This document shows, in pieces, positions 3,801 to 53,164 of a DNA stretch of 64,000 nt. Under the pieces are notes generated by a model that was not told the DNA's origin, made no database searches, and saw only the letters and a list, made by a program, of their open reading frames with translations. Position 1 is the first letter of the stretch. Every line of letters begins with the position of its first letter. The position numbers and the translations under genes were made by a program. Origin of the DNA: Macrostomum lignano (Eukaryota); NCBI GenBank assembly GCA_002269645.1, contig NIVC01000926.1:124001-188000 (forward strand), given 5' to 3'.

Positions 3801-4158
3801 CAGCGGCTTCAACCCCTTCCTGGACGGAGGGTTCATCGCTTTCATCGTCAGTGTCCAGGTTTTCAACGAAATTGCAGTCAGGTTTATGTGTCTCCGAACT
3901 GGTGTTACTACTTTCGTTCACAGACTGTACACTATCGTTTCTTTTGCTTTCATCCCTCCGTCGATCTTCAGCGGACGCTCGGACAGGAGACGCGAGCACG
4001 TTATTTTTTTCACATCTTCCCTTTACAGCCTTTTTTCTCGAACGGAATCCCGTGCCATCCGCTTCTCTATAACCATTCGATCTGCGAATGGAATTCCACA
4101 ATATGACTCGATTACGTAACCGATTTCTAATTTTCAGAACCTTACACAGGTAGGTGTA
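820..4158 (-). pseudogene. NOF/Foldback-like MULE (Mutator) DDE transposase, frameshifted; upstream part displaced to beyond 33391 by the Maverick insertion
   Basis: ORFs 3315-3578 (CKIEGC...ELNH zinc-domain-like), 2510-3259 (LHIDATGS = D1, TDFSWA = D2, FLCSNH = CxxH) and 1815-2570 (NAHVESWF = E) are colinear and broken by frameshifts. The small ORFs at 821-1238 may be a C-terminal domain. Confidence 0.7.
1670..1808. repeat. 39-bp coding minisatellite, about 3.5 copies
   Basis: Repeated GGGTCCTCCGGGTCGATGAAAGGTGAGTGCATGCT; translates as F(V/I)(N/D)PEDPGSMHSP in ORF 1376-1900. Confidence 0.85.
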
Positions 4159-4499
4159 AGTAGTATGTAAAAAGACGAGCACAGACCCAGAACCCCCTTT
4201 TTAAAATATGCGTTTTTAAGGTCTAGAGGGGGGACACGGGGGGAAATTTAAAGAACACATCTAAACACCCTCCAGCACCCTCCAACACATAAAAACACAC
4301 CTAACACATAAAAACACATCTAACACTATTAACACTTCGAATCAAGTCCCCCGTGTCCCCCCTCTAGACCTTAAAAACGCATATTTAAATAAGGTCTGAT
4401 CTGTGCTCGTCTTTCCACACACTACTACACACACAAACTCTCTAGAACCCGTCGCACGCGCCGCAGGCGCGAAGGGTCTTTTTCTGTTACTAAAAATGA
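4159..4499 (+). repeat. Left TIR (341 bp) containing a 268-nt palindrome
   Basis: Reverse complement of 33045-33385 with scattered substitutions; arms 4159-4243 and 4348-4426 pair around an A/C-rich loop. Confidence 0.93.
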
Positions 4500-4781
4500 G
4501 CCGAGTTTACATGAATTTCACATGATACATGCTAACGAATATAAAAATTCATGTGCTGTTTTACACACAATGCACCGAGGACAGAGAATAAAAGCGTCTA
4601 TTGTGCTACAGCGGGGCAGGCCATTTTTGGATAGAGAATCTTTTGTGTTTGCGCCATCTATATTTTCTATACAAAAAAAGAGTAAAAAAGAGCTATAAAA
4701 TAAAACCGCTCGAGATGCTTGTACACTACCCTTTCTTTAGTGTCTGCAACTTAATTTTTCTGTTACTAAAAATAGACAAAA

Positions 4782-5177
4782 ATGACACACGTTACACATA
4801 TGCAAAATATGAATGAATTGCAGGTAGGAGACCCAGTTGAATACCGAGGTGAGGGTCTTTTTGATGTGGTTGGAACAGCAGCAAACTTCGTTAAAGATAA
4901 TATGGGTCTTATAGGCCAAGCAGGCTCTGCAGCAGGTTCTATAACAAACGCTGTAAAGGGTGGAATTGAAGCAGCGAGGGCAGTAGAAGAACTAAAGAAA
5001 TTGAGAGAATTTAACGACACCCTCTCACAAATAAAAGCAATAAAAGATTTGAAACTAGCGCAGGAAGCAACTCAAGCCGCACAACCAACAGAAACCCCCA
5101 CGAAAACCACACCAATAAGCAATAAAGATATTCAGGATTTTAATAAAATGTTAACCACAATTAAAGGTGGAAAATGA
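4782..5177 (+). CDS. Maverick 131-aa Gly/Ala-rich protein of unknown function (possible virion protein)
   Basis: Intact ORF, first gene after the left TIR, ends in IKGGK. Confidence 0.65.
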   Translation: MTHVTHMQNMNELQVGDPVEYRGEGLFDVVGTAANFVKDNMGLIGQAGSAAGSITNAVKGGIEAARAVEELKKLREFNDTLSQIKAIKDLKLAQEATQAAQPTETPTKTTPISNKDIQDFNKMLTTIKGGK

Positions 5178-5202
5178 TTAAAAAAATTTTAACAATATAA
5201 AA

Positions 5203-6177
5203 ATGGACACGGATAACGACCGTTTATATTTTATAGGAGAAATTGTAGATACTTTAAATCTAGATGATAATAAACATAGCCACACAATGTTAAAAAGATT
5301 GGATCGTTTAGGTAAAAAACTTGACTACGATATCGATACATTTAAACTTGCTGCAAAATATGCACAAGAAGGAAGGCCAATATCCTTTAAGAATCGCGGT
5401 AGAAATTATAGGCTGACAGACTCCGATGTAAAATTTTTATTGGAGACTCACACTAAAAAAGACGGCGGATTGTTACCTATTTTACCAATTCTTTTAGGCC
5501 TCGGAGCAGCCGGAGCAGCCGGTTTAGCAGGCAAAAGAATTCATGATAACCGAAAACAGTTAGCAGAATTAAAAGCAAAACAGGGGGGTATACTTCCACT
5601 TGCAACTTTGTTACCAATAATTTTTGCAGGAATAGGAGCAGCTGGAGGAGTTGCTGGTGGAGCAGCTGGAATTGCAAAAGCAGTAAATGACAAAAAAGCT
5701 GCGGATGAAAAAGCCAAAAGAGAGGCCGAATTTCAAAGACAGCAAATAACGCAGGATGCTCAATTCAAACAGAAACTCATTGACACTATTAATTGTAGTT
5801 CAGCAACAGCAGAGCAAAAAAGAAATGCAGAAGCTAGGTTAGCAGCCGGAAAAGGTTTACTGTTAAATGGCAGCGGTTTGGTACTAAAAGGAACAACCCA
5901 AGGAAGTGGAGTTGTAGCAGATAAACTACAGGAATTTGGTCAAACTTTAGAAAAAACGGGTGAGAAAGCTAAAGGATTTTTTGACAATATTGGAGCTAAT
6001 TTTAGGCCAGCAGTTCAGAAGATTTTTAATAAGTTAGGAAAAGATTTTAACATAATTGAAAAACACGATGGAAGCGGATTATATCTCGAAATGAGACCAA
6101 AAGCAGGTTCAGGAATTTTCTTAAATTCAAATGTTATGGGCAACGGACTACTGTTACCAAAAGCAGATCTCGAATAA
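5203..6177 (+). CDS. Adenovirus pX-like core/membrane-active precursor protein
   Basis: Two GG(L/I)LP-hydrophobic-GAAG segments (KDGGLLPILPILLGLGAAG; KQGGILPLATLLPIIFAGIGAAGGVAGGAAGIAKAVN) resembling adenovirus pX GGILPLLIP; repeated G(K/S/N)G(L/I)(L/Y/F/V)L motifs. Confidence 0.7.
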   Translation: MDTDNDRLYFIGEIVDTLNLDDNKHSHTMLKRLDRLGKKLDYDIDTFKLAAKYAQEGRPISFKNRGRNYRLTDSDVKFLLETHTKKDGGLLPILPILLGLGAAGAAGLAGKRIHDNRKQLAELKAKQGGILPLATLLPIIFAGIGAAGGVAGGAAGIAKAVNDKKAADEKAKREAEFQRQQITQDAQFKQKLIDTINCSSATAEQKRNAEARLAAGKGLLLNGSGLVLKGTTQGSGVVADKLQEFGQTLEKTGEKAKGFFDNIGANFRPAVQKIFNKLGKDFNIIEKHDGSGLYLEMRPKAGSGIFLNSNVMGNGLLLPKADLE

Positions 6178-6203
6178 AGACTATATAAATTTTATTCTAT
6201 AAA

Positions 6204-9200
6204 ATGGAAGCTATTTTAGCCAAAATCGATAATCCTGAAATTAGAGCACAATTAATAGCTCAATTGGAATTAGAAAGAGCTAATATAGAAGCAGAAATTA
6301 GAGCAAAATATGAAAAACGTTTAGAAAGACAATTAAATGATATTGACAACCCCCAACCACAAAGACAAAATGGAGCTGAAGTAATAGATATAGATATAGA
6401 TATAAATACAAATTATAAAGAATATTTTAAACAAATGAAAGATAAATTAAAGACCATATTAAACAATTATACTATAAGGCCAAATAACAAACGACAGCCA
6501 ATTAAGTATAAAATAGAAGTTGAAACAGAATTTAAAAAACCAAATATACTTAATGCAAATTCAGAAATTGAAGTAATAAATAACTTTTCACAAGAATCAT
6601 ATAAAACATTACTATCAATGAGAAATTACGACAATCAATTTAATCAAATAGAAGCTGAGTTTGATGAATGGATAGATAAGATGACAGAAAACGGATCTGG
6701 GTTTATATTTGTATCTTTTAATTCAGCAACAGTAAAGATTGTTCCTATTGAAATTCTTAAAGGGCGATCACATATGAATCCAGGATTTAAATCACACATG
6801 ATCATAAATCCAGACAATAGTGATAATAAATGTTTATTATGGTGTTTATTAATTCATAAATATCACAATCAAGTAGAATCACACACTAATAGAATATATA
6901 ATTATAGACAATATGAGAATGAAATAATAATGGAAAACATATCATACCCAGTAGCCATAGATGATATATATAAGATTGAAAAAATGAATGGGTTAAATAT
7001 TAATGTGTTTACAATTGAACAGCCAGAAGAAGAAAATCCAACCGATAAAGATTGGTATAAGAAAAACTGTTATTTAGTAAAGCCAGCAACTGATATAACA
7101 GCACCCAATCAAATCGACCTTTTGTACATACAGAATGAAAATGAAACACATTATATCTACATAAAGGACATTAGTTCATTTTTAGAAGTAAATAAAAATA
7201 GAATGCTATTATGTAGAAACTGTTTCACATTTAAAAAGAATGAAACAGCTCTTAAAAATCATCAACGATTTTGCTTAGATCATAAATTTACTAATGTTGT
7301 AATGCCAGATTATGAAGATGCAACCCTAAAGTTCCAACAACATTATATGGCAATTAAAAAACCAATAGTAATATATGCTGATTTTGAAGCAACAAATGTT
7401 CCCTTAAAAGAATCACAGACAGTATCTGATGGCGAATGCACAAAAAAATTAGCACAACAGTTTCCTAATAGTTATTGTATATATGTACACTCAGTAGCCA
7501 ATCATATATTTAAATCAAGGCTGATTACTTACCACGGCAAGGACGCAGCAAAACACATGGCAGAATCATTAGTAAATGCATTTGAAGTTATACAAAATCA
7601 ATATGATAAATTATCAAAAAATATTATTATGACAGATAAGGATAGAGACAATTATAAAAATGCAACAAATTGTTTTATGTGCAAAAGGTATTTAAGTAAG
7701 AATAATAAAATACGAGAACATTGTCATCTAACGGGAAAATATCGTGGGGCAGCATGTAGATCATGTAACGCAAAAGAAGGAAAAGGCTGTAAGGAAATAC
7801 CAGTATTTTTTCATAATGGTTCCGGATATGATTTTCATTTCTTAGTTCGAGAATTGCTACATTTAGGAAAGGATGAATATGAAGTAAATATATTACCTAA
7901 AACATCAGAAAATTACATATCAATAACATATGGTAAGAAATACTCCCATCTAGTTTTTCTAGACTCCTTGAGATTCTTATCAACCTCCCTAGCGAATGTT
8001 GTTTCATCATTAGTTCCAAAACCATGGGATTTAGAAATAGTAAAGAAAAACTTTCCAATACTATTGAATCGTTTCAAAAAAGAAAAACTATCCGAGGAAG
8101 AACTAATGCTATTAACTCGTAAGGGCATCTATCCATATGAATATGTAACATCTGAAAACGTATTTAGTGATACTCAACTACCCCCAATTGATAAGTTTTA
8201 TTCAACATTATCACAATCAAATATAAGTGAATCGGATTATGAACACGCTCAAAAAGTATGGAAATACTTTAATTGTAAAACATTTAAAGATTATCATAAT
8301 CTATATCTTAAAGCAGATATTCTCCTATTAGCTGATGCATTTGAAAACTTTAGGAATCATACATATGAGAACTTCAAAATTGATCCCGCATATTGTTTTA
8401 GTGCACCAGGTGATTGAGAAAGGAATTCGCGGCGGATTCTCGGGGGTACTAGGAGATAGATATACTAAAGTAAATAATAAATATCTACCAAATTATAATA
8501 AAAAAGAAAAATCATCATATGTATTATATCTAGATGCAAACAATTTATACGGTGGTTGTATGAAACAAAAATTACCAATAGCTGATTTCCAATGGGAAGA
8601 CGATCCCGATTATTACAAAAACATTCCCGAAGGAAGGGGTTGTATTGTAGAAGTGGATTTGCTATATACTCGGGAAGCAAAAGCAAAAACATATAAATAT
8701 CCTTTAGCTCCAGAGCATTGTTCAGTTAATGAAGATGATTTATCACAAACACAAAAAGATTATCTTAAAGCTGATAATACAAAACATCTAGCAACAAAAA
8801 AGTTAATACTAAATTTACATGATAAGAAAAACTATGTAGTGCATTATAAGCTTCTACAATTTTATGAAAAACAGGGATTAAAAGTGTCTAAAGTACATCG
8901 AACAATATCGTTTATTGAGGAAGATTGGTTAGCTAAATATATTGACTTTAATTCAAATCAGAGACAGATGTCAAAATCAAATTTTGAGAAAGATTATTGG
9001 AAATTAATGAATAATGCTTTTTATGGAAAAACGGTTGAAAATATTAGAGATAGAACCCAATTCCATTTAGAAAAGGATATTGATAAAGCAAAGAAATATT
9101 TCTCAAAACCTAACTTTAAAGACTTTATAAAATTTTGATGAGGACGCACTTTTTCCCAAATCCCGCGCTAGCACATGGGCTCTAAACTTACTTGCCTACT

Positions 9201-12039
9201 AACAGTGGGCAGTGGGCATTTTTATCCTTTTTCTGCGAATTTTCATAGAATCTATACTAGATATAATGTCTGGCCATACTAGTAGTCATAATAACATAGG
9301 CGCAGCTTTTTGGGTCGTAAATCATCGCTTTCGAAGCTGATCTGACAGCCACCTGCGCCTCACTCAGTGTTGAAGCGGGCGCCAGATGGTCTGAGAGGAT
9401 GCGGGCGGTAGCTTTTTTTTCTCATCATTTTGACAGGCCATCAAGATTTATGAGGTCAGAGCCTATTGTTCGGATTCACTCAAGCGTGTGACAGCTTTGA
9501 CAGCTATGCGTTGTACCCCTAAAAGTACCTTGGGATCAGCGATTAGCGATTTCTCTTCATTATCTTCACTTTCTATTTAATAAGAGCTTTCTAATGTATA
9601 TTTTTTCATTAATTTCTGTCAATCCTACGCGAAAAGTCATAAATCATTTTGTTGCGATTTTGAGTGATTTATGGCCGCACCTGTCATCTTTTTACGACCC
9701 TGTGGGAACTGATAGGATCTCTCGGTCACGTGATTCTGGGTAGCAACGAGCTTAGCCAATCAGAAAATTCGGCGCTCATTTTAACAAAACGGCTCAGCCA
9801 ATCAGAATCGACGTGTTCCGTTATAACAAACTGCGGTCCAGTTGGCGGCTATTTAAACCGGAGTTTTTGGCCCGCTCGGACGCAACTTCTTCTTACTTTG
9901 GCTCGGGCCCAGCGCGCAGCTTCTGGTTCCCGGAGCACGACCGTCGTTTCTTGATCCCCGGATTGCAACTTCCCCCATCATCATCAAGGACGAGTCCCCC
10001 GGTCGACAGCAGCGAACATCCAGTTAAGAGCATCACCTGCTAGCTAACAGCGAAGATTGTGACAGCATCATCCCGAGTCTACAGCTGCAGAGCATCGAGC
10101 CGATTCGGTCACTGTGGAATACCTGGTCTCCGGCTGTTGAGTTTCTGATTGGTTGGGTGAGAGGCTACCTAGACTTGCTTGATTGGGTGATCCCTTTTCT
10201 GTCCCCTGTTGCAGTAGCTGAATTAGGCGCACAATTTTGCTCATTTTGTTCAGTAGTGCTGTTGCTGAGGCAGGAATCATTCAATAATACTGCCAGTAGT
10301 CTAAGACTCCAATTCAATCTAAAGTGTGAAGTGAATTAAGGAGAAGATTAAATCTAACAGTTATCTTTGTCGGCTTTATTTCTTTGTTCGCCGATGGCTC
10401 AGATGAGTAGCTAAGCTAGTAGGCGCCGGTCACAGTGGACCAATGGCAAGGCAGTTCTCAGTCGACCAATCTAACAAATCAGTGAGCAAAACTGCCAAAA
10501 GTGCAGAATCGGCGCCAGAGATGTACTTTGTGCACTCTAGGGTAGCCAAGCGGCTCGGGTAAATGAATCATGCGGTCTCTGAAGTTCGAGTTAGCCTATC
10601 ATCAGCGCTATGAGAGGCTAGTTGGCGCGTTGAAGGCTAGAAGTACATATCTTCGTATTTAGCAATGTAATAGTACATGTAGCTACCCATAGACTCGCCA
10701 CCGCAAGAATCCCCTGCACAAGTCCCCTCTGTACCTGCATGGCCAACGCGATCTAGTCCCAGCAGTGTCCCTTATCATCGGCTATGACTTCGAGATTGAC
10801 AGCAAAAAGACACTAGTTGGCAGGTAAGTGCAAAGCCCCTTCTAGTCGGAAGCCCGATTTCGAGAGTCCCGGTGTGGTGAGCCAGGGCGCACGGGCTGGT
10901 GGCAGCAAGTTAGTTGATCTGCGGATTAGCTAATTTCTACTTTCAAAATTCTCCCTGCTCGTCTCTCGCTGTCCCTCTCTTAGCTATAGGACCTAGACTG
11001 CTCGCCACACGATCAAGCTACCATGGGGCTGACCATCTGACAGGAGTGGGGGGCCAGGTCTCTAATTGATTTATTTCTGAGCCTGAGGCCCGAAGGCTTC
11101 CCTAACAAGGAGCCCGAAGGTCGAATCCCATCAATTTGATGATAACTTTATGGGTATTCATATGAGAAATAAAACAACAAAATTTCTTAAACCAATATTT
11201 ATTGGAATGGTTGTTTTAGATTTTGCAAAGTTAGTAATGTATGAATACTATTATGATGTTATAAATAAAACGTGGCCAGATAACTATCCAATATATGCAG
11301 ATACTGACAGTTTGGTATTTAAGGTTGAAACACCAGATGTTTATAAAGATATGGAAAAAATTAAGGATACATTGGATACATCCGACTATCCGGATAACCA
11401 TCCCTTAAAATCAGATCAAAATAAAAAAGTTGTACTTAAAATGAAAGATGAATTAAATAGCAAAATCATAACTGAGTTTATAGCAATAAGATCAAAATGC
11501 TATGCATTTAAAGTTTTAGGACAGGAGGGAGAGGTAAAAAAATAAAAGGGGTATCGAGGGCAGCAGTTAAAAAGATAACATTTGATGATTATAAAAACGT
11601 ACTTTTAGATTATCTTAATACAATTGAAAATTATCATGCTCCACAATATCGATTAAATTCAGATAAGCATCAGATGTTTGTCATTGAGACAGATAAAAAA
11701 ACATTAAGTCCATTTGATGATAAAAGATATTTAGATGATAAAATTAAAACATTTCCATTTGGTTTAAAAGAAGAGATAAAAAATATGATAAAAGATAAAA
11801 AACAAAAAGAAGATATAATAAGCAAATATAGAGAATACAAAGAGGCAATAAATAATTATTATTACGATTGTGATTGCGAATCCGAATGTGAATGTGAATA
11901 TAATAAATATCTAGAATATGAAAAAGATATAGATAATTATTATGCAACATTTCCAAAAGAACTTAAAAAATTAAACAAGGAAAAAGTCTTGGATAACTGG
12001 AAGAGATTAACAGAAAAATTAATACCGGCAAAAAACTAA
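6204..12039 (+). pseudogene. polB: Protein-primed family B DNA polymerase with an embedded EndoVII-like zinc domain; disrupted
   Basis: YADFE, FHNGSGYDFH, KADILLLAD (exonuclease I-III); CFMC...EHCHLTGKYRGAACRSCN; YLDANNLYG, KLMNNAFYGK, YADTDS. Lesions: deletion with frameshift at about 8410 (SAPG joined to IEKGIRGG), solo LTR at 9136-11133, frameshift in an A-run at about 11543. Confidence 0.97.
9136..11133. mobile_element. Solo LTR (1998 bp), probably Ty3/Gypsy-type
   Basis: Termini TGATG...CATCA; 4-bp TSD ATTT at 9132-9135 and 11134-11137; removal restores polB ...DFIKFDDNFMGIHMR...; no coding capacity; CCAAT and TATA-like motifs near 9755-9860. Confidence 0.85.
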
Positions 12040-12294
12040 AGCATGTAATTGTTTAAGCATAATGTCCATTTCAATTTCGTATTTTATAGAACACCAATTG
12101 TCCTCACAATCAGCAGGATAACTTAAACATTCCTTTATTTTTTTCCTAAGTACTTTTATTTTTCTAACAAGACGATCAATTTCAATTTCAATTACTGTTT
12201 CAGCATAAGCAATTGCTTTTTGTATAAAACGTTTTCTTTTATCCAAGTAGTATCGAATAGGAAACACGTCGTCCCCGTAATCACTATAAAACAT
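12019..12294 (-). CDS. Maverick small hypothetical protein
   Basis: 91-aa ORF overlapping the polB end; no recognised motif. Confidence 0.4.
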   Translation of the reverse strand: MFYSDYGDDVFPIRYYLDKRKRFIQKAIAYAETVIEIEIDRLVRKIKVLRKKIKECLSYPADCEDNWCSIKYEIEMDIMLKQLHALVFCRY

Positions 12295-12383
12295 ATTATT
12301 TATTTTTTATTAATATCATTAAGTTCACGCTCTTTAGTGATAAGGATCATTTGTATCTCCATTTTCTTATAAAAAATTTAAAC

Positions 12384-20761: not shown

Positions 20762-21322
20762 TTGTTAAATTTATTTTTTATAAAATGGAAACTAATAAGA
20801 TTTGTACTAAGGGTAAACAAGAAAAACCGATGACTAAAGAATTTTTTTATTGGAGAAACGATTCAAAAAAATTTAGAAATGATTGTCGCTTTTGTCATAC
20901 TGCTTCGGCTACGATGTGGATGAAAAACAATAAAGATAAATGGAAAGAATATATAAAAAATAAATATCACACCGATGAAAATTACAAAAATATTACTCTT
21001 ATTAGAAATAGAATAAATTGGGCGTTGAAAAATTTTAATGACAAGGACTATATCTCATATCTTGGTTGCACAAAAGAATTCTTTTTTGATTGGTTAAATT
21101 TCACAAGAAATTATTATGTATCAAAAGATTATACTGGAATGTTACATATTGATCATTTAATCCCCGCTTCTTCATTTAGTTACAAAGATGCCGATCAGAT
21201 GAAAAAGTCTGAACATTGGACAAATAAAAGATACTTAACTAGTGAATGAAGACGCTGTCGTCTTCAAAGGTGGGACGATGGTTTATATATTGTGTTTTTA
21301 TCCTTTTATGGCTATGACATAT

Positions 21323-23655
21323 GCCCCTGGCATTAGTTAGTCAAGTGGTCTAGTGGGGGCTGGCCGCCCCCACGCCCCTGGCATTAGTTAGTCTAGTGGT
21401 ATAGTGGGGGCTGGCCGCCCCCACGCCCCTGGCATTAGTTAGTCTAGTGGTATAGTGGGGGGCTCGCCGCCCCCCACGCCCCTGGCATTAGTTAGTCTAG
21501 TGGTATAGTGGGGGCTGGCCGCCCCCCACGCCCCTGGCATTAGTTAGTCTAGTGGTATAGTGGGGGGCTGGCCGCCCCCCACGCCCCTGGCATTTGTTAG
21601 TCTAGTGGTATAGTGGGGGGCTCGCCGCCCCCACGCCCCTGGCATTAGTTAGTCTAGTGGTATAGTGGGGGCTGGCCGCCCCCCACGCCCCTGGCATTAG
21701 TTAGTCTAGTGGTATAGTGGGGGCTGGCCGCCCCCACGCTCCTGGCATTAGTTAGTCTAGTGGTATAGTGGGGGGCTGGCCGCCCCCCACGCCCCTGGCA
21801 TTAGTTAGTCTAGTGGTATAGTGGGGGCTGGCCGCCCCCCACGCCCCTGGCATTAGTTAGTCTAGTGGTATAGTGGGGGGCTGGCCGCCCCCCACGCCCC
21901 TGGCATTAGTTAGTCTAGTGGTATAGTGGGGGCTAGCCGCCCCCCACGCCCCTGGCATTAGTTCTTCTAGTGGTACGCTCGTATAGTGGGGGGGGGCTTG
22001 CCGCCCCCCACGCCCCTGGCATTAGTTAGTCTAGTGGTATAGTGGGGGGCTGGCCGCCCCCCACGCCCCTGGCATTAGTTAGTCTAGTGGTGTAGTGGGG
22101 GGCTGGCCGCCCCCCACGCCCCTGGCATTAGTTAGTCTAGTGGTATAGTGGGGGGCTGGCCGCCCCCCACGCCCCTGGCATTAGTTAGTCTAGTGGTATA
22201 GTGGGGGCTGGCCGCCCCCACGCCCCTGGCATTAGTTAGTCTAGTGGTATAGTGGGGGGCTGGCCGCCCCCACGCCCCTGGCATTAGTTAGTCTAGTGGT
22301 ATAGTGGGGGCTGGCCGCCCCCCACGCCCCTGGCATTAGTTAGTCTAGTGGTATAGTGGGGGCTGGCCGCCCCCACGCCCCTGGCATTAGTTAGTCTAGT
22401 GGTATAGTGGGGGGCTGGCCGCCCCCACGCTCCTGGCATTAGTTAGTCTAGTGGTATAGTGGGGGCTGGCCGCCCCCACGCCCCTGGCATTAGTTAGTCT
22501 AGTGGTATAGTGGGGGCTGGCCGCCCCCACGCCCCTGGCATTAGTTAGTCTAGTGGTATAGTGGGGGCTGGCCGCCCCCACGCCCCTGGCATTAGTTAGT
22601 CTAGTGGTATAGTGGGGGCTAGCCGCCCCCCACGCCCCTGGCATTAGTTCTTCTAGTGGTACGCTCGTATAGTGGGGGGGGCTTGCCGCCCCCCGCCCCT
22701 GGCATTAGTTAGTCTAGTGGTATAGTGGGGGCTGGCCGCCCCCACGCCCCTGGCATTAGTTAGTCTAGTGGTGTAGTGGGGGCTGGCCGCCCCCCACGCC
22801 CCTGGCATTAGTTAGTCTAGTGGTATAGTGGGGGCTGGCCGCCCCCACGCCCCTGGCATTAGTTAGTCTAGTGGTATAGTGGGGGCTGGCCGCCCCCACG
22901 CCCCTGGCATTAGTTAGTCTAGTGGTACGCTCGTATAGTGGGGGGCTTGCCGCCCCCCACGCCCCTGGCATTAGTTAGTCTAGTGGTATAGTGGGGGGCT
23001 GGCCGCCCCCACGCCCCTGGCATTAGTTAGTCTAGTGGTATAGTGGGGGCTGGCCGCCCCCCACCCCTGGCATTAGTTAGTCTAGTGGTATAGTGGGGGC
23101 TAGCCGCCCCCCACGCCCTGGCATTAGTTCTTCTAGTGGTACGCTCGTATAGTGGGGGGGGGCTTGCCGCCCCCCACGCCCCTGGCATTAGTTAGTCTAG
23201 TGGTATAGTGGGGGCTGGCCGCCCCCACGCCCCTGGCATTAGTTAGTCTAGTGGTATAGTGGGGGGCTGGCCGCCCCCACGCCCCTGGCATTAGTTAGTC
23301 TAGTGGTATAGTGGGGGCTGGCCGCCCCCACGCCCCTGGCATTAGTTAGTCTAGTGGTATAGTGGGGGGCTGGCCGCCCCCCACGCCCCTGGCATTAGTT
23401 AGTCTTGTGGTATAGTAGGGGGCTAGCCGCCCCCCACGCCCCTGGCATTAGTTTTTCTAGTGGTATAGTGGGGGGCTGGCCGCCCCCCACGCCCCTGGCA
23501 TTAGTTAGTCTAGTGGTATAGTGGTATAGTGGGGGGCTAGCCGCCCCCCACGCCCCTGGCATTAGTTAGTCTAGTGGTATAGTGGGGGGCTGGCCGCCCC
23601 CACGCCCCTGGCATTAGTTTTTCTAGTGGTATAGTGGGGGCTGGCCGCCCCCACA
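21323..23655. repeat. 51-bp minisatellite array, about 45 units
   Basis: Unit GCCCCTGGCATTAGTTAGTCTAGTGGTATAGTGGGGGCTGGCCGCCCCCAC; no unique spacers. Confidence 0.97.
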
Positions 23656-24052
23656 CCCCGCTCCCCCACCCCTCCCGCGCGTTGTTGTTGGGGAGGGTGG
23701 TTGTTGTTGTGGGGTTTGCGTAACGTGGGGGCTGCCGCCCCACACCCCCGCTCCCGCACCCCACCCCTCCGCAACTCTTCTCACCTCTAACACATCTTTT
23801 TAGCATGCTAAAACTGCTTGTAAGCCTTTGGCGACCGCGCAACACATGATACTTGCCGATATGTATCGTAATATTTTTTCTGCACTAACAAATCATCTGT
23901 GCCGCACTTTCAGCTTCACTCTTACTCTTTAATAAGGTATAGAAGGAAATGAAAATTAAACAATCAATATTAAATTATATTCAAGTGAAAGAGAATTGAA
24001 AATACTAATAAATCCGTTCCTGCTAAAAAAATTAAATTTAAAAAAAAAACTT

Positions 24053-24125
24053 TGCCCACTTGGGATTCGAACCCGTGTTTAGGCCATTTACAAAGCAACT
24101 GCCTTCGGCCCCGATCCATCTCTTG
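24053..24125 (-). pseudogene. tRNA-derived (Pol III promoter-like) sequence
   Basis: Minus strand has B-box GGTTCGAATCC followed by a T-run; no clean cloverleaf. Confidence 0.55.
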
Positions 24126-25980
24126 CTTAAGCGAAGCTCTACAGTGCACGCCCTTTATATCGAATATTCCCTATGGTAGCCACTTTTACGATTTTTGCTG
24201 CTTTTTCATACATTTCTGCTCGCTGCATCGCAGCGCCTTCATCTAAAAATGCGAGTTGCATGTCGTTACAGAGATAACATCAAGGCGCATTCATCTAATG
24301 CATTTTTAAAGTATGTCAACAAATTTTACGCCTCCTAGGCGCCAAATTGTGCATTTTCACCTGTTCTGACAGGTATTCAAACAGGTATTAAGACCTATTA
24401 ACTTAAGAATCAGTTTTCAAAACTAATTTAGTTGCACAGTGCATCCATAGTGCTGTTTTTAGACACCAAAATTGAGTCTCTAGGCCTTGCCAATGCAGAG
24501 TTATTAGCAAAAGTATGCTCAAAATTTGCCCAAAAATAGCCTTCTAAAAATTCGGAGCCAATTTTCTCAAAAATACGAATTTTCCAGCCATATTGGCGTA
24601 TGACCGGTGTAACTTTAGCTATTCGACTAAACAATATTGAAAATGCAGAAAAATCGGTGCGCAAAAATTCTTATTTTTCGACTTCAAAGTTTGTACCCCC
24701 GAATGGGCCGTTTTTCACTTAACAGGTAAAAAGTACCTGTTAACAGAGGTTTTTTCAGGAGTGTTTTATGTCATTCAAAAGGGCATCCGATAGGCTACAA
24801 TTTGACGCCATACTCGAAAAACTTTGCCCCATTTTAAAAAAATTTCCTTAACAACGTCTGATTTTCTGCAGTGCCCCCGGCCTCTTTTTTCCCTGGTTTC
24901 CGGGTCACTGCTCAGCACAGGTAGGTCCAAATGCTTAGAAAATTTAGGAAAACAAATTTCCATATGTTTGACACGTCGTGTTAAAGTCTCAACACTGTAG
25001 CATAAAACACTTTTTCAAGTTTGAGGACTACTTTTTTAAAACGTGACCCAATTTTTCGAAAATGTCGTTTTTAGGCACTCTTTGGCACCTGGGCAGGTTA
25101 TTGATGGCCCAATCGGCCAAATCTCGATGTTTCCGATTAAAAGACATCCATTTGAGTTATTTGGTATACAAAACAGCAAAAATAAAGTTTTCCATCTCGA
25201 CGCCATAGGCCTCACAAAAGTGCACTAAAAATTTGTACTTTTAAACAGCAGATAGGCAACCATGTGAAAAGTACATTTTAGCCCTAAAAACTATAGCGCA
25301 TCAAACAGCCCCAGGTGTTATTGACGCTATGAGGCAGCTCAAAGGCCGCGCTATCGCGCGTCCTTTTCGCTGCGGTGAGGCAAAGTTGAAAAAAATGCCG
25401 ATTTTTCGACCTCAGAAAACACGTTTTTTGCACTTTTACCCTAAAAGTTAAAGTACAATCAAAAAATCCATTTCTGATCATTGTAGCGTTTGAATGCCCG
25501 CGTTTACTGAGCCCACTCGCTAAGCGCTGCCATATTCTCAATCCTTATTTTTTGAGATCAAAGTTTTTGACAAAGTCGAAAAAACGCAGTTTTTGGTTGC
25601 CATGGCAACCAAAACGCGTTGCCATAGCAACCAACTATTGTGCATCCGATAGCGCTAGGTCTTTGACACATTTTGGCAAAAACTGTTTGTAAATCGGTTG
25701 TACCGTTTTTTATTGGCAGCGTTTAAAAGTTGAAAAACGTCATTTTTAGTGTGTGCAACCACGTTACATCTTATCAGGGACGATTTCGCAAAAGTAAGCA
25801 GCATAGAAAAAAATTCTCGCTTCGCTCGCCTTTTTTTCTATACTACTTACTGGCTCATCGTCCCACAACTAGTGAATGAAGACGCTGTCGTCTTCAAAGG
25901 TGGGACGATGGTTTATATTGTGTCCATTATTGTTTATGGCTATGACATCTATTTATTTAACCTAAATTGAGATCTAAAAA

Positions 25981-27570
25981 GCCCCCCACGCCCCTGGCAT
26001 TAGTTAGTCTAGTGGTATAGTGGGGACTGGCCGCCCTGGCATTAGTTAGTCTAAGTGGTATAGTGGGGGGCTGGCCGCCCCCACGCCCCTGGCATTAGTT
26101 AGTCTAGTGGTATAGTGGTATAGTGGGGGCTGGCCGCCCCCACGCCCCTGGCATTAGTTAGTCTAGTGGTATAGTAGGGGGCTGGCCGCCCCCCACGCCC
26201 CTGGCATTTATTAGTCTAGTGGTATAGTGGGGGCTGGCCGCCCCCCACGCCCCTGGCATTTATTAGTCTAGTGGTATAGTGGGGGCTGGCCGCCCCCACG
26301 CCCCTGGCATTAGTTAGTCTAGTGGTATAGTGGAGGGCTGGCCGCCCCCACGCCCCTGGCATTAGTTAGTCTAGTGGTATAGTGGGAGGCTGGCCGCCCC
26401 CACGCCCCTGGCATTAGTTAGTCTTGTGGTATAGTGGGGGCTGGCCGCCCCCCACGCCCCTGGCATTAGTTAGTCTAGTGGTATAGTGGGGGCTGGCCGC
26501 CCCCACGCCCCTGGCATTAGTTAGTCTAAGTGGTATAGTGGGGGCTGGCCGCCCCCACGCCCCTGGCATTAGTTAGTCTAGTGGTATAGTGGTATAGTGG
26601 GGGCTGGCCGCCCCCACGCCCCTGGCATTAGTTAGTCTAGTGGTATAGTAGGGGGCTGGCCGCCCCCCACGCCCCTGGCATTAGTTAGTCTAGTGGTATA
26701 GTGGGGGCTGGCCGCCCCCACGCCCCTGGCATTTATTAGTCTAGTGGTATAGTGGGGGCTGGCCGCCCCCACGCCCCTGGCATTAGTTAGTCTAGTGGTA
26801 TAGTGGGGGCTGGCCGCCCCCCACGCCCCTGGCATTAGTTAGTCTAGTGGTATAGTGGGGGCTGGCCGCCCCCACGCCCCTGGCATTAGTTAGTCTAAGT
26901 GGTATAGTGGGGGCTGGCCGCCCCCCACGCCCCTGGCATTAGTTAGTCTAGTAGTATAGTGGGGGGCTGGCCACCCCCCACGCCCCTGGCATTAGTTAGT
27001 CTAGTGGTATAGTGGGGGCTGGCCGCCCCCACGCCCCTGGCATTTATTAGTCTAGTGGTATAGTAGGGGCTGGCCGCCCCCACGCCCCTGGCATTTATTA
27101 GTCTAGTGGTATAGTGGGGGCTAGCCGCCCCCCACGCCCCTGGCATTAGTTAGTCTAGTGGTATAGTGGGGGCTCGCCGCCCCCCACGCCCCTGGCATTA
27201 GTTAGTCTAGTGGTATAGTGGGGGCTGGCCGCCCCCCACGCCCCTGGCATTAGTTAGTCTAGTGGTATAGTGGTATAGTGGGGGGCTAGCCGCCCCCCAC
27301 GCCCCTGGCATTAGTTAGTCTAGTGGTATAGTAGGGGGCTGGCCGCCCCCCACGCCCCTGGCATTAGTTAGTCTAGTGGTATAGTGGGGGGCTGGCCGCC
27401 CCCCACGCCCCTGGCATTAGTTAGTCTAGTGGTATAGTGGGGGGCTGGCCGCCCCCCACGCCCCTGGCATTAGTTAGTCTAGTGGTATAGTGGTATAGTG
27501 GGGGCTAGCCGCCCCCCACGCCCCTGGCATTAGTTAGTCTAGTGGTAAAGGGGGGCTGGCTCCCCCACCG
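25981..27570. repeat. 51-bp minisatellite array, about 31 units
   Basis: Same unit as 21323-23655. Confidence 0.97.
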
Positions 27571-27875
27571 CTCCACCACCCCTCGAGAACTTTTCCCACA
27601 TCTAAACACGTCTTTGTAATATGTTACAACTATATTCTAGCCTTCAAACGACCAGACATCAAATACTTGCTTGCCGACATGTATCGTAATATACTTTTTG
27701 CACTAACAATCATACGTGCCGCACTAAAAGATTCACTGTTACTCTTTAAATACGTATAAAAAGAAAAATAAATTTAAATAAATGTAATTTAATTGTATAA
27801 AAAACATAATAGTTAGAGAAATAAAAATACTAAAAAACTGTTTGCTCTAAAAGAACTTTAAACTAAAAATTTTTC

Positions 27876-27942
27876 GGATCTCTTGGGAATCGAACCCTGC
27901 AGCACTCAATTATATGGAAACTAACTCTGCCACTGAGCCACA
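27876..27942 (-). pseudogene. tRNA-derived (Pol III promoter-like) sequence
   Basis: Minus strand has A-box TGGCTCAGTGG and B-box GGTTCGATTCC, followed by TTTTT. Confidence 0.6.
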
Positions 27943-30670
27943 AATTGCTTACTAAGTTGGCCTATTGTACACGTATTTTATATCGAATATCGCTAATAGC
28001 AGCCATTTCTACCATTTTTTCTGCTTTTTCATACATTTCTGCTCGTTGCATCGCAACGCTTCTACCTAAAAATACGAGTCGCATGTCGTTACAGAGATAA
28101 CATCAAGGCGCATTCATCCAATGCATTTTCAAACTATGTCAACAAATTTTTCGGCTGCTAGGCGCCAAAATATTAATTTTCACCTGTTCTGGCAGGTAAT
28201 CAAACAGGTATTAAGACCTGTTAACCTAAGAATCAGTTTTCAAAACTGATTAAGCTGCATAATGCATCCATAGTGCTGTTTTTAGACACCAAACTTGAGT
28301 CTCTAGGTCTCGCCAATGCAGAGTTATTAGCAAAAGTATGCTCAAAATTTGCCCAAAAATGGCCTACTCAAAATTCGGAGCCAATTTTCTCAAAAATACG
28401 AATTTTCCAGCCATATTGGCGTATGACCGGTGTAACTTCAGCTATTCGACTAAACAATATTGAAAATGCAGAAAAATCGGTGCGCAAAATTTCTTATTTT
28501 TCGACTTCAAAGTTTGTACCCCAAAAGGGCCGTTTTTCAATTAACAGGTAAAAAGTACCTGTTAACAGGGGTTTTTTCAGGAGTGTCTTATGTCATTCAA
28601 AAGGGCATCCGATGGGCTACAATTTGACACCACATTCGAAAAAATTCGCCCAGTAATAAAAATTTTTCTTTAACAACATATGGTTTTTTGGTCGAGTCCC
28701 CCGGCCTCTTTTTTCCCCGGTTTCCGGGTCACTGCTCCGCACAGGTAGGTTCAAATGCTTAGAAAATTTAGGAAAACAAATTTCCATATGTTTGACACGT
28801 TTTGTTAAAATTTCAACACCGTAGCTTAAAACACTTTCTTATTTTTGGAGACTACTTTTTGAAAACGTGACCCAAATTTTCAAAAACACTCTTTTTGACC
28901 CTTGTAGCCATATAGAGCAGCAATGAATGGCCCAATCAAGCAGATCTCAGCATTTCCGAATAAAAGACATCCATTTGAGTGATTTGGGTTGAAAAATTGA
29001 AAAAATCAAGATTTGCATCTGTATAGGATAAGCCTCTTTAAAGTGCACAAACGGTTTGTACTTTTAAAGTGCAGATAGGCAGCCATGTCAAAAGTACATT
29101 TTAGCCCAAAAAATTATAGCGCATCTAAAAGCCCCAGGTGTTGTTTACATTATGCAGCAGCTCAAAAGCCGCGCTATTGCGCGTCCTTTTCGCTGCAGTA
29201 CGGGCAAGGTTGAAAAACATGTACAAAAAATTGGCCGAAAAATTGCATTTTTAAAAATCAGATGCAGTTTGCTCAAAAATACGAATTTTCCAGCCATATT
29301 GGCGTATGACCGGTGAAACTTTAGCTATTCGACTAAACAATATTGAAAATGCAGAAAAATCGGTGCGCAAAATTTCTTATTTTTCGACTTCAAAGTTTGT
29401 ACCCCCAAATGGGCCGTTTTTCACTTAACAGGTAAAAAGTACCTGTTAACAGGGTTTTTTTCAGGAGTGTCTTATGTCATTCAAAAGGGCATCCGATGGG
29501 CTACAATTTGACACTACACTCGAAAAAATTCGCCTCATTTTAAAAAAATTTCCTTAACAACGTTTGATTTTCTGCAGAGCCCCCGGCCTCTTTTTTCCCT
29601 GGTTTCCGGGTCACTGCTCAGCACAGGTAGGTCCCAATGCTTAGAAAATTCAGGAAAACAAATTTCCAAATGTTTGACACGTCGTGTTAAAGTCTCAACA
29701 CCGTAGCATAAAACGCTTCCTTATTTTTGGGGACTACTTTTTGAAAACGTGACCCAATTTTTCGAAAATGTCGTTTTTAGGCACTCTTTAGCACCTAGGC
29801 AGGTTATTGATGGCCCAATCGGCCAAATCTCAATGTTTCCGAATAGAAGACATCCATTTGAGTAATTTGGTGTAGAAATATTAAAAAATAAAGTTTTCCA
29901 TCTCGACGCCATAGGCCTCACAAAAGTGCACTAAAATTTGTACTTTTAAACAGCAGATAGGCAGCCATGTGAAAAGTACATTTTAGCCCTAAAAACTATA
30001 GCGCATCAAACAGCCCCAGGTGTTATTGACGCTATGAGGCAGCTCAAAGGCCGTGCTATCGCGCGTCCTTTTCGCTGCGGTGAGGCAAAGTTGAAAAAAA
30101 TGCCGATTTTTCGACCTCAAAAAACACGTTTTTTGCACTTTTACCCTAAAAGTTAAAGTACAATCAAAAAATCCATTTCTGATCATTGTAGCGTTTGAAT
30201 GCCCGCGTTTACTGAGCCCACTCGCTAAGCGCTGCCATATTCTCAATCCTTATTTTTTGAGATCAAAGTTTTTGACAAAGTCGAAAAAACGCAGTTTTTG
30301 GTTGCCATGGCAACCAAAACGCGTTGCCATAGCAACCAACTATTGTGCATCCGATAGCGCTAGGTCTTTGACACATTTTGGCAAAAACTGTTTGTAAATC
30401 GGTTGTACCGTTTTTTATTGGCAGCGTTTAAAAGTTGAAAAACGTCATTTTTAGTGTGTCACATCTGTTGCACATCTTATCAGGGACGATTTCGCAAAAG
30501 TAAGCAGTATAGAAAAAAATTCTCGCTTCGCTCGCATTTTTTTCTATACTACTTACTGGCTCATCGTCCCACAACTAGCGTAGATAATCGCTATAAAAAA
30601 GTTAAGCAACCAACTATCGAAGAATTTGCAAAACAATTAGTGTTAACTTGTATTTTTAAGGCTATTAAAA

Positions 30671-32276
30671 ATGAGCAATCAATTAGTGTTTGAAGGAGGA
30701 TTATTAGATGTTCAAAAAGGATTAACAAGCTTACCACCAATCTTTACTACTGGAAGGTATACAGGTGAGTTACACATCCCAGGGTATTCGTACGCAGGTT
30801 AACCCGCGGCCTAAGTGGTAGAAGCAAAGCTACTGCTAGTCACTATTTGTGGCGACATCTTCAAATTGCGTGAAACCCGTCATACAGCTTCAAGTACCAC
30901 TTCAATTGAGAAATCTTTTGAAGGAACAGAGGTAACTCCTCTTCCCAATCGGACTTCGTCCGCGAACCTATGGTTCGAAGGTAACAAGCTTGAAGACACG
31001 GTGGCAATGCGCAGCCAAGCTCCTAAGTCGGCAGATATGGAGAAGGTTCAGAGAGCAGACGGAGGTGGGCGGTAATTTATCCGCTTAAGGTGTGCTCCAG
31101 CCTATTTCGAAAGATTTAGGGTAAACTACCGGGCACTCGGCTGGATTTGAGATTAAATCCTGACAATACTCCAAAAGCCGATTCAATTCCCATTAACGGT
31201 ATTGATTGGTTAGCATATTATCATGACTTAGCATACAGAGATGCTGATAAGAACTCACCCGAGGAAGCATTAAGATTAAAACATGAAGCCGATAGAAAAA
31301 TGATTCAAGGATTGGATAATTTGCAGGGGCTGTCAGTAAGCCAAAGATTAACTAGGTGGATGGTTAAAAAAATCTTGCAATCTAAAGTTAAATTTGGTTT
31401 GGGAATTAATTACAATCAACATGGAAATAATTGTGTTGAGTGTTTGCTATTAAGTGGTGGTGGGTTAAGTTCTGATGAGGCAAAGATTCTTCATAAAGAA
31501 TATCGAAAACCTAAATTTTATAGAAAAATCATGAACTTCAAAAAGAATGAAATTTGGTATGCTGATTTAATGTTAATGCCAATCGATAAAGGATATAAAT
31601 ATATCTTAACCATATTAGATGGTTTTACTCGATATGCGTGGGCTGTTCCTTTAAAATCCAAAAAGGAGAGGAGGTTGCTGGTGCTTTTAGAAGTCTTGGA
31701 GAAAAAAGTGAAAGGTTGTGTGTTGATGAAGGAAAAGAATTTTACAATCCTCATATGTATAAATTATATCATTTTGAAAAAGGACAAGAAAGGATAAAAG
31801 ACGCGAATGGGGAGTATATTAATAAAATTTATTCTATTTATGGAGAAAGTAAAAACGCATTAATAGAAAAATTTAATCGAACTTTAGGTAAGAAATTGTG
31901 GTTTCAGTTTAGTCTTAATGGAAATCAAAAGTGGGTAAAAATATTACCAGACGTCGTGAAAGATTATAATAGTTCATATCATTCGGCTATAAAGATGACT
32001 CCTCAACAAGCTTATAACAGTCCTGAAAAAGTTAAAGTTACTTTTGGAGAATTTGAAAAAAAGAAAACTAAAGGTTTTAAGGTTGGTGATTCTGTTTATA
32101 TCTATAAATGGAAAGATAAGTTTGAAAAGGGAAGAAAAGGATATTGGAAAATAAGTGAGAAATTTACTATCAGTAAAGTTTTAAATACAAATCCTACAAC
32201 CTATATAATTGCTGATAAGGATGGTGAAGAAATATTGGGTTCGTTTTATGAGAACCAGATAATATCTGCGAACTAA
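30671..32276 (+). pseudogene. Parvovirus-like phospholipase A2 (PLA2X) fused to a retroviral-type integrase; contains a group I intron and a frameshift at about 31660
   Basis: Exon 1 (30671-30799, 43 codons) ends GYSYAG. Exon 2 (from 31129) starts PGTRL...INGIDWLAYYHDLAY...HEAD and reads through into the integrase: WYAD, ILDGFTRYAWAVPL, VDEGKEF, IEKFNRTL, YNSSYHSAIKMTP. Confidence 0.9.
30800..31128 (+). ncRNA. Group I self-splicing intron, IC1-like (329 nt, no internal ORF)
   Basis: P AAATTGCGTG, Q AATGCGCAGC, R GTTCAGAGAGCA, S AAGGTGTGCTCC. Helices: P3 CATCTTC/GGAGGTG; P4 TGCGTG/TGCGCA; P6 GCC/GGT; P6a CTCC/GGAG; P7 G-(A)-GAGCA/TGCTCC; P8 GGCGG/CCGCT; P9 with a GAAA loop. The 5' exon ends in U, and removal restores YAG-PGT in frame. 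Confidence 0.92.
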
Positions 32277-32286
32277 ATTCGAACAG

Positions 32287-32496
32287 TTACTTAAGACAAC
32301 AGGGTAGTAAATTTTTTATAACAAACAAAAACAATATTATTACTATTATTGTTACTAATATAATTATTGACATTTGTTCAACAGTGATTAGACTTAAATT
32401 TTCATTAAGTTCATTAACCGGGACGTAATTTACCTTCATTTTTTTATATATATTTTTAATAATAAATGTCGTTTCTGTTATAGAATAATAGTTCAT
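32287..32496 (-). CDS. Small single-pass membrane protein
   Basis: 69 aa, hydrophobic stretch IIILVTIIVIILFLFVI, TAAAAAATG start. Confidence 0.6.
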   Translation of the reverse strand: MNYYSITETTFIIKNIYKKMKVNYVPVNELNENLSLITVEQMSIIILVTIIVIILFLFVIKNLLPCCLK

Positions 32497-32499
32497 TTT

Positions 32500-32730
32500 T
32501 TAAATATTTTTTTCACAATTTAAACATTGTGCTAAAAGAAGAATTTGCTCCCCCTTATCCCAAATATAATCTAATTCATCAATTTCAAGCGGATATATCT
32601 TTATATCTGGAAATATATATACTTCATCTAGTATTTCATCCTTTATTAATTTTTTTATTGAATCAAGTGCATTAAATATTGTTTGAGTTGATTCAACTAT
32701 TGAAAATTGGGGTCTGTTAAATAATTCCAT
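32500..32730 (-). CDS. Small acidic protein, paralog of 32734-33048
   Basis: Shares DEVY...YPLE(I/L)DE....GE.I..L with its neighbour. Confidence 0.65.
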   Translation of the reverse strand: MELFNRPQFSIVESTQTIFNALDSIKKLIKDEILDEVYIFPDIKIYPLEIDELDYIWDKGEQILLLAQCLNCEKNI

Positions 32731-32733
32731 TTT

Positions 32734-33048
32734 TTACATAAAAATTTCAATTTCATTCTCAGAATCACTAGTTTCATATGAGCTATTTGTTGATTCGGAA
32801 TCGTCTGAATGAACCTCCCAATCATCTGAATTTAAATAATCTCCAAGTTGAAATATTAACTCGCCCTCTTGTTCTAAATCATACATCTCATCCAACTCTA
32901 ATGGATAAAGTTTTAGGTCATACTTGTCGTCATATTTTAAATAAACTTCATCAATTATTCCGTTCAAAATATGCTGTTTTATTATCTCTGCATTTTTAGC
33001 AACAGTCTCAAAAGTATCACTAACAGAAAAGGTGTAAACTCTGTTCAT
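32734..33048 (-). CDS. Small acidic protein whose start codon lies inside the right TIR
   Basis: 104 aa; the ATG at 33046-33048 is the innermost part of the TIR. Confidence 0.65.
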   Translation of the reverse strand: MNRVYTFSVSDTFETVAKNAEIIKQHILNGIIDEVYLKYDDKYDLKLYPLELDEMYDLEQEGELIFQLGDYLNSDDWEVHSDDSESTNSSYETSDSENEIEIFM

Positions 33049-33385
33049 TTTTAGTAACAGAAAAAGACCCTTTGCGCCTGCGGCGCGGCCTGGGGTTATA
33101 GAGTGTTTGTGTATGTAGTAGTATGTAAAAAGACGAGTACAGATCAGCCCTTTTTTAAAAAGACCGTTTTAAGGTTCTAGAGGGGGGACACGAGGGGGAT
33201 AATTCGAAGTGTTGGGGGTGGTTTTTATTGATTTTTGGTATTAGGGGGTGTTGTAGGGTGTTTTTGTGTTGGAGGGTGTTTAGATGTGTTTTTTTATTTC
33301 CCCCTCGTGTCCCCCCTCTAGACCCTTAAAACGGTCTTTTTAAAAAGGGGCTTCTGGGTTTGTACTCGTCTTTTTACATACTACT
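33045..33385 (-). repeat. Right TIR (341 bp) containing a palindrome
   Basis: Arms 33117-33198 and 33300-33385 pair around a G/T-rich loop. Confidence 0.93.
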
Positions 33386-53020: not shown

Positions 53021-53164
53021 GAGCAGCTATATTTAGAATTCAGTTATGTTGCAGATTTATAAGTTTTTAACTAAGCAAAGCAAGCCAATAACAAGATAGC
53101 GATTTAGCAAAATATTAAGTATATTGTGATAATGTAATGTATCTTATCAGACGTCAATGTCAAA

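Follow-up and report, generated by a model that had tools for sequence, protein, structure and literature searches.

The window analysed here is a stretch of 64,000 nucleotides from Macrostomum lignano (NCBI GenBank assembly GCA_002269645.1, contig NIVC01000926.1, positions 124,001 to 188,000 of the forward strand; all positions below count from its first letter). It contains a decayed copy of a Maverick/Polinton element, in which a gene for an HNH-type nuclease lies directly upstream of a gene that fuses phospholipase A2 (PLA2) to an integrase and is split by a group I intron lacking an open reading frame (ORF). The first-pass annotation proposed that this nuclease and this intron may form a collaborative homing pair of the kind known from phages. 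In related copies a second nuclease, predicted to cut GGNCC, takes the place of the HNH gene, and it is this cutter that is the better-supported partner of the intron. The features of the locus are as follows.

4159..33385, no strand assigned: Maverick/Polinton element, decayed copy; terminal inverted repeats of AGTAGT type, target site duplicated over 6 bp
20090..20761, + strand: conserved ORF of 223 amino acids (aa), the left bound of the nuclease slot, which it precedes in nearly all main-family copies
20785..21242, + strand: 5' piece of a gene for a zinc-finger plus HNH/EndoVII-like nuclease (cassette A), containing the catalytic His and the first Asn
21243..30578, + strand: non-coding, transposon-like insertion of 9,336 bp, a tandem dimer of 21243-25872 (4,630 bp) and 25873-30578 (4,706 bp)
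30579..30693, + strand: 3' piece of the HNH gene, with the last conserved Asn and Lys and the C-terminal helix
30671..30799, + strand: exon 1 of the PLA2-integrase fusion gene, ending in the Gly codon of the calcium-loop motif
30800..31128, + strand: ORF-less group I intron of 329 nt, lying between the GGN and the CC of a GGNCC, with an internal guide at about 30809-30813, a paired P7 with the usual G-binding pair, and A as its last base
31129..32276, + strand: exon 2, the remaining PLA2 plus rve integrase, its frame split in the window copy

The split nuclease gene and the intron

The element has the terminal inverted repeats, the 6-bp duplication (4153-4158 and 33386-33391), the rve integrase, the packaging ATPase and the pPolB polymerase of a Maverick. 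In the genome around it, 86 matches to the Wnt family are those of an animal. In the window the Pfam matches to the A32 ATPase and the rve integrase are both weak, and the pPolB family PF03175 was matched in sibling copies, about 10 kb from PLA2. The labels capsid and protease are putative, being taken from size, position and what such elements usually contain. The copy in the window is dead. Besides the interrupted HNH gene, which also deviates at a zinc-finger position, it has a broken integrase frame and an intron that ends in A. The 223-aa ORF upstream of the slot has no match in Pfam or PHROG.

The first-pass annotation joined the two HNH pieces across the insertion, and the reconstruction is real, as the other loci and the ORF calls both show. 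With each piece compared on its own, the matches to 20785-21242 and to 30579-30693 abut (gap 0) in 95 of the 95 other loci with an HNH cassette, so that they are a single HNH gene split by the 9,336-bp insertion. The frame starting at 20785 runs for 154 aa to a stop at 21249, within the insertion. The rejoined gene ends at 30693, overlapping the PLA2 ATG at 30671 by 23 nt, and is a free-standing nuclease gene beside an intron-split gene, 107 nt from the intron. The insertion itself contains a 52-bp minisatellite and short subterminal inverted repeats and has hairpins at its termini, and one hexamer stands at each end and again where the two units join. The insertion is found at the HNH position in the window copy only, and may be a Crypton- or Helentron-like element.

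The split gene is best called, from its sequence, a zinc-finger plus HNH/EndoVII-like nuclease. The catalytic His, structural Asn and metal-binding Asn of such nucleases stand in order (H124, N147 and N156) and, with a Lys, are invariant in 35 aligned relatives, and 34 of 35 sequences of the family match PHROG 1035, 'endonuclease VII'. Pfam gave no HNH-family match for the window protein or for the 35 family members, and a sequence search of the PDB returned a weak zinc-finger match to Hpy99I (E 0.04). The predicted fold has a model confidence (pLDDT) below 50 for residues 109-189, the nuclease half, where a beta-beta-alpha fold would be expected, and is too poor for a fold search. A profile search with the family collected 17,057 representatives; a word-indexed search with the HNH protein found no relatives among 25 candidates. 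The full-length frame is kept in 67 of the 96 HNH loci, with a ratio of nonsynonymous to synonymous substitution rates (dN/dS) of 0.48 over 49 distinct frames. In the window copy the deviation is at one nearly invariant zinc-finger position, and the last conserved Asn is severed by the insertion.

The limits of the intron, 30800-31128, were set by comparison with intron-less copies. It scores 53.6 bits against Rfam RF00028 (gathering threshold 50), and relatives score 60.9, 61.3, 85.2 and 80.6. The description of it as ORF-less stands: no ATG-started ORF of at least 100 aa lies inside it. A U.G pair is found at the 5' splice site, and the exon and guide of P1 covary between two intron types (104 versus 22 loci). 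P7 occurs as four differing helices, all fully paired, with compensatory changes across intron types. The window's guide has one mismatch, common to 3 loci. Judged by such covariation, the pairings look maintained. The intron closes with A at 80 of the 108 type-1 loci, the window included, and with G at the other 28; the closing base is G in 11 of 11 readable sister-family loci (see below), and the G-binding pair of P7 is unchanged across type-1 loci. A hexacoral group I intron without a terminal G is spliced in vivo (PMC6545197). Contigs from four runs, which we guessed to be RNA, were compared with the sibling copy L008 and contain no joint across the intron, which is evidence neither for nor against splicing.

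A diverged type-2 intron lies at the same 5' site in 24 loci (L061, L068 and 22 more). It has peripheral helices in common with type 1, with swapped P4 and P7 letters, and scores 42.9 bits against RF00028 in L068, with L061 and L095 absent from the matches listed. The type-2 3' junction cannot give an in-frame Gly-Pro-Gly, so that splicing must either yield another calcium loop or use an unusual splice site. Some introns are themselves interrupted, by an insertion of about 6.7 kb in L184 (G000:C986) and of 0.83 kb in L095.

Two nucleases in one slot

The slot was surveyed in 135 main-family loci with both exons, taken from searches of which one scored 150 of 505 candidates. This set leaves out 9 duplicate loci, L064 and L148 (which lack exon 1), 12 sister-family loci, and L038/L072, a single HNH copy with a 6.7-kb insertion inside its intron; 3 further sister-family matches were left aside as well. 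The slot holds the HNH gene in 96 loci, a PD-(D/E)XK nuclease gene in 37 and a non-nuclease cassette in 2. The association of HNH gene and intron expected from the first-pass annotation does not appear: 93 HNH loci have the intron and 3 lack it, while all 39 loci with another cassette have it (Fisher p=0.56). Clustering at 97% identity leaves 65 groups, with counts of 43, 2, 20 and 0 in the same order, and thus 2 intron-less groups. The intron is almost fixed, so this test is weak and has low power, and the loci are related copies in an assembly with duplicated haplotypes (Wnt loci occur in pairs), so that the counts are not independent.

All 3 intron-less main-family loci are HNH loci, and two of them, L039 and L071, have a full-length HNH frame beside the empty site. 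The HNH gene does therefore stand beside an empty site, in 3 of 96 loci, where sequence variation may protect it; this is not predicted by a model in which the intron is the only immunity. Intron loss by way of cDNA was considered and is rejected for L039 only, since this locus lacks the U before the splice site. The ratio of intron types in HNH copies is that of the other cassette (p=0.80). The PD-(D/E)XK nuclease is never beside an empty site (37 of 37 copies have the intron, a count with low power from related copies). Of the proposed collaborative pair, the idea of a free-standing nuclease with an ORF-less intron is supported, and the HNH nuclease is a candidate partner of the intron. Of nine further HNH loci (L173-L181), 6 have a type-1 intron, and the other 3 lack an intact PLA2 next to the gene. 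A third nuclease was suspected in the non-nuclease cassette of L011 and L137, an idea that was rejected because the cassette resembles part of the upstream ORF. The slot in these loci holds a diverged partial copy of that ORF, and the same variant lies inside the upstream ORF in L189, L182 and L183.

The 37 PD-(D/E)XK loci have an ORF of 167 aa that starts and ends at the same positions in the slot. The predicted fold of this protein has a pLDDT of 89.4, and is of the PD-(D/E)XK kind seen in EcoO109I and AvaII: EcoO109I is the best match in fold comparison (Z 9.9, root-mean-square deviation 3.6, 166 residues aligned; next match Z 6.2), and EcoO109I and AvaII are among the first four Foldseek matches, behind a partial match to DdmD. 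A viral fold library gave weak PD-(D/E)XK-like matches. An intron-borne form of the ORF (described below) matches RE_Eco47II (PF09553) with 26.2 bits against a cut-off of 25.9, and the free-standing form scores 20.6, below the cut-off. The catalytic pattern E, D, E-x-K is invariant in 13 of 13 aligned sequences, and dN/dS is 0.25 (14 distinct frames). EcoO109I cuts RG^GNCCY and AvaII G^GWCC (PMC7337904), and Eco47II homologues have been linked to GGNCC 'without certainty' (PMC10305163). Sequence and model together make it most likely that the slot nuclease cuts GGNCC.

The same nuclease is also found inside introns. In a sister Maverick family, whose PLA2 is about 60% identical, a related intron lies at the same codon and carries the nuclease in its 5' loop (L156). 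The order exon 1, nuclease, intron core, exon 2 recurs in 15 distinct sister-family loci. Matches to the PLA2 of the sister family are split in about 24 cases and unsplit in 20; by coordinates, the nuclease lies beside 23 of the 24 split ones. A metagenome contig (L217) has this arrangement in a PLA2-integrase gene, and a translation of intron core ends 13 of 24 database relatives of the GGNCC-type nuclease. A tree of 21 proteins of this type has an open base and no outgroup, which leaves the direction between free-standing and intron-borne forms undecided.

The HNH nuclease has relatives in such introns too. The C-terminal 46 residues of P0013, its third-best relative, align with the translation of the window intron (E 5e-14), and P0174, which belongs to the GGNCC-type family, has exactly the same tail. 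These identical intron-core tails indicate that the two nucleases trade places within one intron lineage as well as in the slot. The position of P0013 inside a closely related intron, as seen at the level of protein sequence, is the best support for the first-pass annotation. Among the 150 HNH relatives listed, 3 have such tails: P0013, P0102 and, weakly, P0091. Relatives of either nuclease were not found in the viral contigs searched. An 18-base intron pattern occurs in 87 stretches, and among the 80 listed there is no match to intron, nucleases or PLA2.

Several further observations concern these introns and families. The capsid gene region of L219, from a giant-virus bin of IMG/VR, has eight group I intron matches in 8.6 kb and ORFs that by eye are GIY-YIG-like; its intron cores resemble the intron of L217. 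In runs X1 and X7, loose contig ends at places 1725 and 1761 of L008 hold further intron variants, with inserts at the loop that carries the nuclease in the sister family, one of them unlike that of L156. The sister-family loci L155 and L209-L210 (G000:C944) differ in gene order, with the PLA2-integrase at the left end, and have an ORF that by eye is primase-polymerase-like.

The GGNCC site and its purge

In the calcium loop of PLA2, a motif whose role is known from parvovirus PLA2, the intron separates the Gly codon from the Pro codon. In sibling copies the exon 2 region is an open frame of about 400 aa, and in the intron-less locus L071 Pfam matches Phospholip_A2_4 and rve in one frame. The empty junction reads GGNCC in 14 of 14 intron-less loci. 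The core of the relatives' sites is likewise GGNCC, and the pentamer is purged elsewhere in the element. The predicted target of the slot nuclease would coincide with the insertion site. Given that Gly-Pro codons always spell GGNCC, and that the calcium loop needs Gly-Pro, this is the one site that the element cannot mutate away.

The purge is seen in the window element, where GGNCC occurs 0 times against 21.2 expected over 17,965 nt and is the most depleted of 256 patterns. Observed and expected counts in six intron-bearing siblings are 0/20.0, 0/19.9, 0/17.1, 0/10.6, 0/12.0 and 1/14.3. An intron-less sibling has 2/12.6, one of the two being the empty site, and in a sister-family element the single occurrence (14.8 expected) is the empty site. 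The surroundings of the slot in 131 loci, which are not independent, have 1 occurrence in place of the 323 expected. The avoidance extends to protein sequence: Gly-Pro occurs 1 and 0 times in the frames of two siblings against about 10 expected, and Pro-Gly 6 and 5 times. All tested copies are purged irrespective of their cassette. Host flanks keep GGNCC (23/18.3, 42/47.0 and 8/11.2), as do six other pPolB stretches (6/12.2, 14/13.6, 15/17.5, 25/25.9, 27/41.6 and 11/15.9).

It is worth adding that a second insertion in the window, at about 9140-11100, is G+C-richer, splits the probable polymerase gene and contains GGNCC sites, unlike the surrounding element. The stretch 6204-8417, probably the N-terminal part of pPolB, has an Endonuclease_7 domain (E 5e-7), which recalls the HNH insertion known in nematode and oomycete pPolB2 (PMC10748475). 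On the minus strand, the ORF 14282-16327 encodes 681 aa with an F5/8 type C domain and 57-bp repeats. Outside the Maverick there is a 41-bp tandem array at 52533-53029.

Proposed homing, its rivals and what it would mean

We consider it probable, with a good deal of room for doubt, that the main partner of the intron is the GGNCC cutter, with the HNH nuclease as an interchangeable second driver. The intron interrupts GGNCC in the DNA and would leave the RNA by splicing, and may thus stand in for a methylase by giving immunity. In a cell where two related genomes replicate, the GGNCC nuclease would cut the intron-less one at its single site, and repair would copy the intron in along with the nuclease gene, which the sister family has inside the intron and the main family 0.13 kb upstream. 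The HNH nuclease would be a second homing nuclease that swaps with the first, as it does in the upstream slot and, at the level of protein sequence, in related introns. There is about an even chance that it nicks near the same exon junction, by way of a longer and tolerant site and not relying on the intron alone. Genomes carrying HNH would keep the intron because it protects them from the GGNCC cutters of their relatives.

A broader statement is that animal-infecting polintons use a methylase-free restriction enzyme as a homing endonuclease, its site being made unique by a genome-wide purge down to Gly-Pro avoidance and the intron shielding the site that cannot be lost, with free-standing and intron-borne states, and HNH turnover in both positions, all in one animal genome. 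We would put this a little above an even chance.

A number of points weigh against these proposals. GGNCC cleavage and intron splicing are predicted, from sequence and fold, and the specificity is drawn from distant relatives of 13-18% identity. The last base is A, not G, in the 80 of 108 type-1 introns noted above. The copies are related and the haplotypes duplicated, so that the counts are non-independent, and the 37 of 37 PD-(D/E)XK copies with intron are not significantly different from the HNH copies (p=0.56). Cassette type and flanking sites are almost unlinked (5 sites with p<0.001, in three regions), and no co-conversion tract was seen. The control pPolB stretches are G+C-richer (43-53% versus 33%) and two are mildly depleted in GGNCC (ranks 13 and 14), and CCNGG is also low in the window element (12 versus 21.2), though present. 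P0013 and P0174 are known at the level of protein sequence. Finally, a cutter with a short site (equivalent to four bases) and no methylase should harm the host genome, and so timing or location must restrain it; late or cytoplasmic expression, sparing the host genome, is our guess.

Three other explanations were weighed, all of them unlikely. The one that survives best regards the HNH gene as an independent selfish gene, indifferent to the intron, which targets the upstream ORF, the rival cassette or exon-1 variants, and is adjacent to the intron since conserved genes attract both. This would account for the lack of correlation with the intron, for the variable middle of the upstream ORF (diversity 0.17-0.18) and start of exon 1 (0.30), and for the few representatives with an intron tail among the 17,057, and it has a parallel in the HNH and PD-(D/E)XK genes that swap at fixed places in phages (PMC10448857). 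It is opposed by the HNH of the same subfamily that, in another data set, occupies the same intron position as the GGNCC-type nuclease, which suggests a target near the insertion site of the intron lineage.

Somewhat less likely still is a strict pair as in F-CphI/psbA, in which the empty site is the HNH nuclease's target, protection comes from the intron only and the two are mobilised jointly. The intron in 93 of 96 HNH copies, the 107 nt between the HNH gene and the site and the intron-core tails of the relatives listed are as this would predict. The last 21 nt before the site, codons that are hypervariable among copies, have a diversity of 0.35 against 0.03-0.14 in exon 2, as would be expected if exon 1 were escaping a nuclease that reads a longer site, but the start of exon 1 is variable as well (0.30). 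Against a strict pair, all 3 intron-less main-family copies carry HNH, 2 of them at full length, L039 is not a cDNA-type loss, the intron is in 39 of 39 non-HNH copies, and either intron type occurs in HNH copies at the other cassette's ratio.

Least likely of all, the nucleases would be weapons against host DNA, a helper giant virus or rival Mavericks, with the purge as self-protection and the intron as a shield for the last site: a short site does suit broad restriction better than homing, host DNA and other polinton stretches are full of GGNCC and the purge is independent of cassette, but most known relatives have the nuclease gene inside an intron loop (13 of 24 with an intron-core tail) and some sites in the sister family are filled while others are empty, as they would be with a mobile intron. 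Weapon and homing roles do not exclude each other.

The closest known system is that of cyanophage S-PM2, where F-CphI and the ORF-less psbA group I intron home collaboratively (Zeng, Bonocora and Shub 2009, by way of PMC6083498 and PMC3984707). The likeness lies in a free-standing nuclease gene next to a group I intron that has no ORF. The differences are that the host is an animal Maverick and not a phage, that two unrelated nucleases alternate in the slot, and that the partner with the better support, a PD-(D/E)XK enzyme of the restriction type, is predicted to cleave a 5-bp site that is unique only through the purge. In polinton-like viruses, other pairs of genes have been put forward as cases of collaborative homing (PMC11296320, 10.64898/2026.10.13.758929). 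ICP1-like phages have exchangeable free-standing homing endonuclease genes, including an HNH gene replaced by PD-(D/E)XK at the same place, and turnover between intron-borne and free-standing genes has been proposed for them (PMC10448857). The short restriction-type site and the genome-wide purge set the present case apart, neither being reported for phages in the accessible text of that paper.

The slot nuclease resembles Eco47II (PF09553), EcoO109I and AvaII in its Pfam match, its fold matches and its E, D, E-x-K pattern, and the element that carries it avoids the predicted site much as phages avoid restriction sites. It differs in a much shorter core of about 165 aa, in being encoded within or next to a group I intron by which the site is interrupted, and in that no cognate methyltransferase was found by a Pfam scan of the 20 ORFs of the window, nuclease-carrying copies not having been scanned gene by gene. 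A PD-(D/E)XK nuclease within a group I intron is also seen with I-Ssp6803I, the homing endonuclease of a cyanobacterial tRNA intron, whose site is about 23 bp. I-Ssp6803I is not among the fold matches listed, though the two may still be related; its family is named in PMC3984707.

Protist polinton-like viruses, in a few groups, have group I introns in the gene upstream of the capsid gene, without an assigned endonuclease (PMC12220804). These are likewise short ORF-less introns in protein-coding genes of polinton-type elements, and a related intron core is found in a giant-virus capsid gene (L219). Here, in contrast, the host gene is the PLA2-integrase of an element present in more than 130 places of an animal nuclear genome. 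A word search of the accessible text of the adintovirus, coral polintovirus and nematode Polinton papers (PMC8502044, PMC11131425, PMC10748475) found no group I introns. Searches of the accessible literature, a scope that leaves aside subscription papers, supplements and Repbase-type annotations, turned up no account of an Eco47II-like nuclease in an intron or of animal Mavericks with group I introns.

Nuclear group I introns have been described as confined to microbial rRNA genes (PMC3679873), whereas here there are well over a hundred in a protein-coding gene of an animal nuclear element. With the same nuclease found beside and inside the same intron, a proposed route to mobile introns can be put to the test in a virus of eukaryotes. 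Long, rare sites are what defines homing endonucleases. If the proposal is true, a restriction-type enzyme would gain rarity by genome-wide loss of its site, with the intron replacing the methylase, which is a different solution. Since homing and purging need related genomes replicating in one cell, they would be indirect evidence of a viral, co-infecting life of Mavericks. The pattern looks like phage-style homing warfare within animal viruses.

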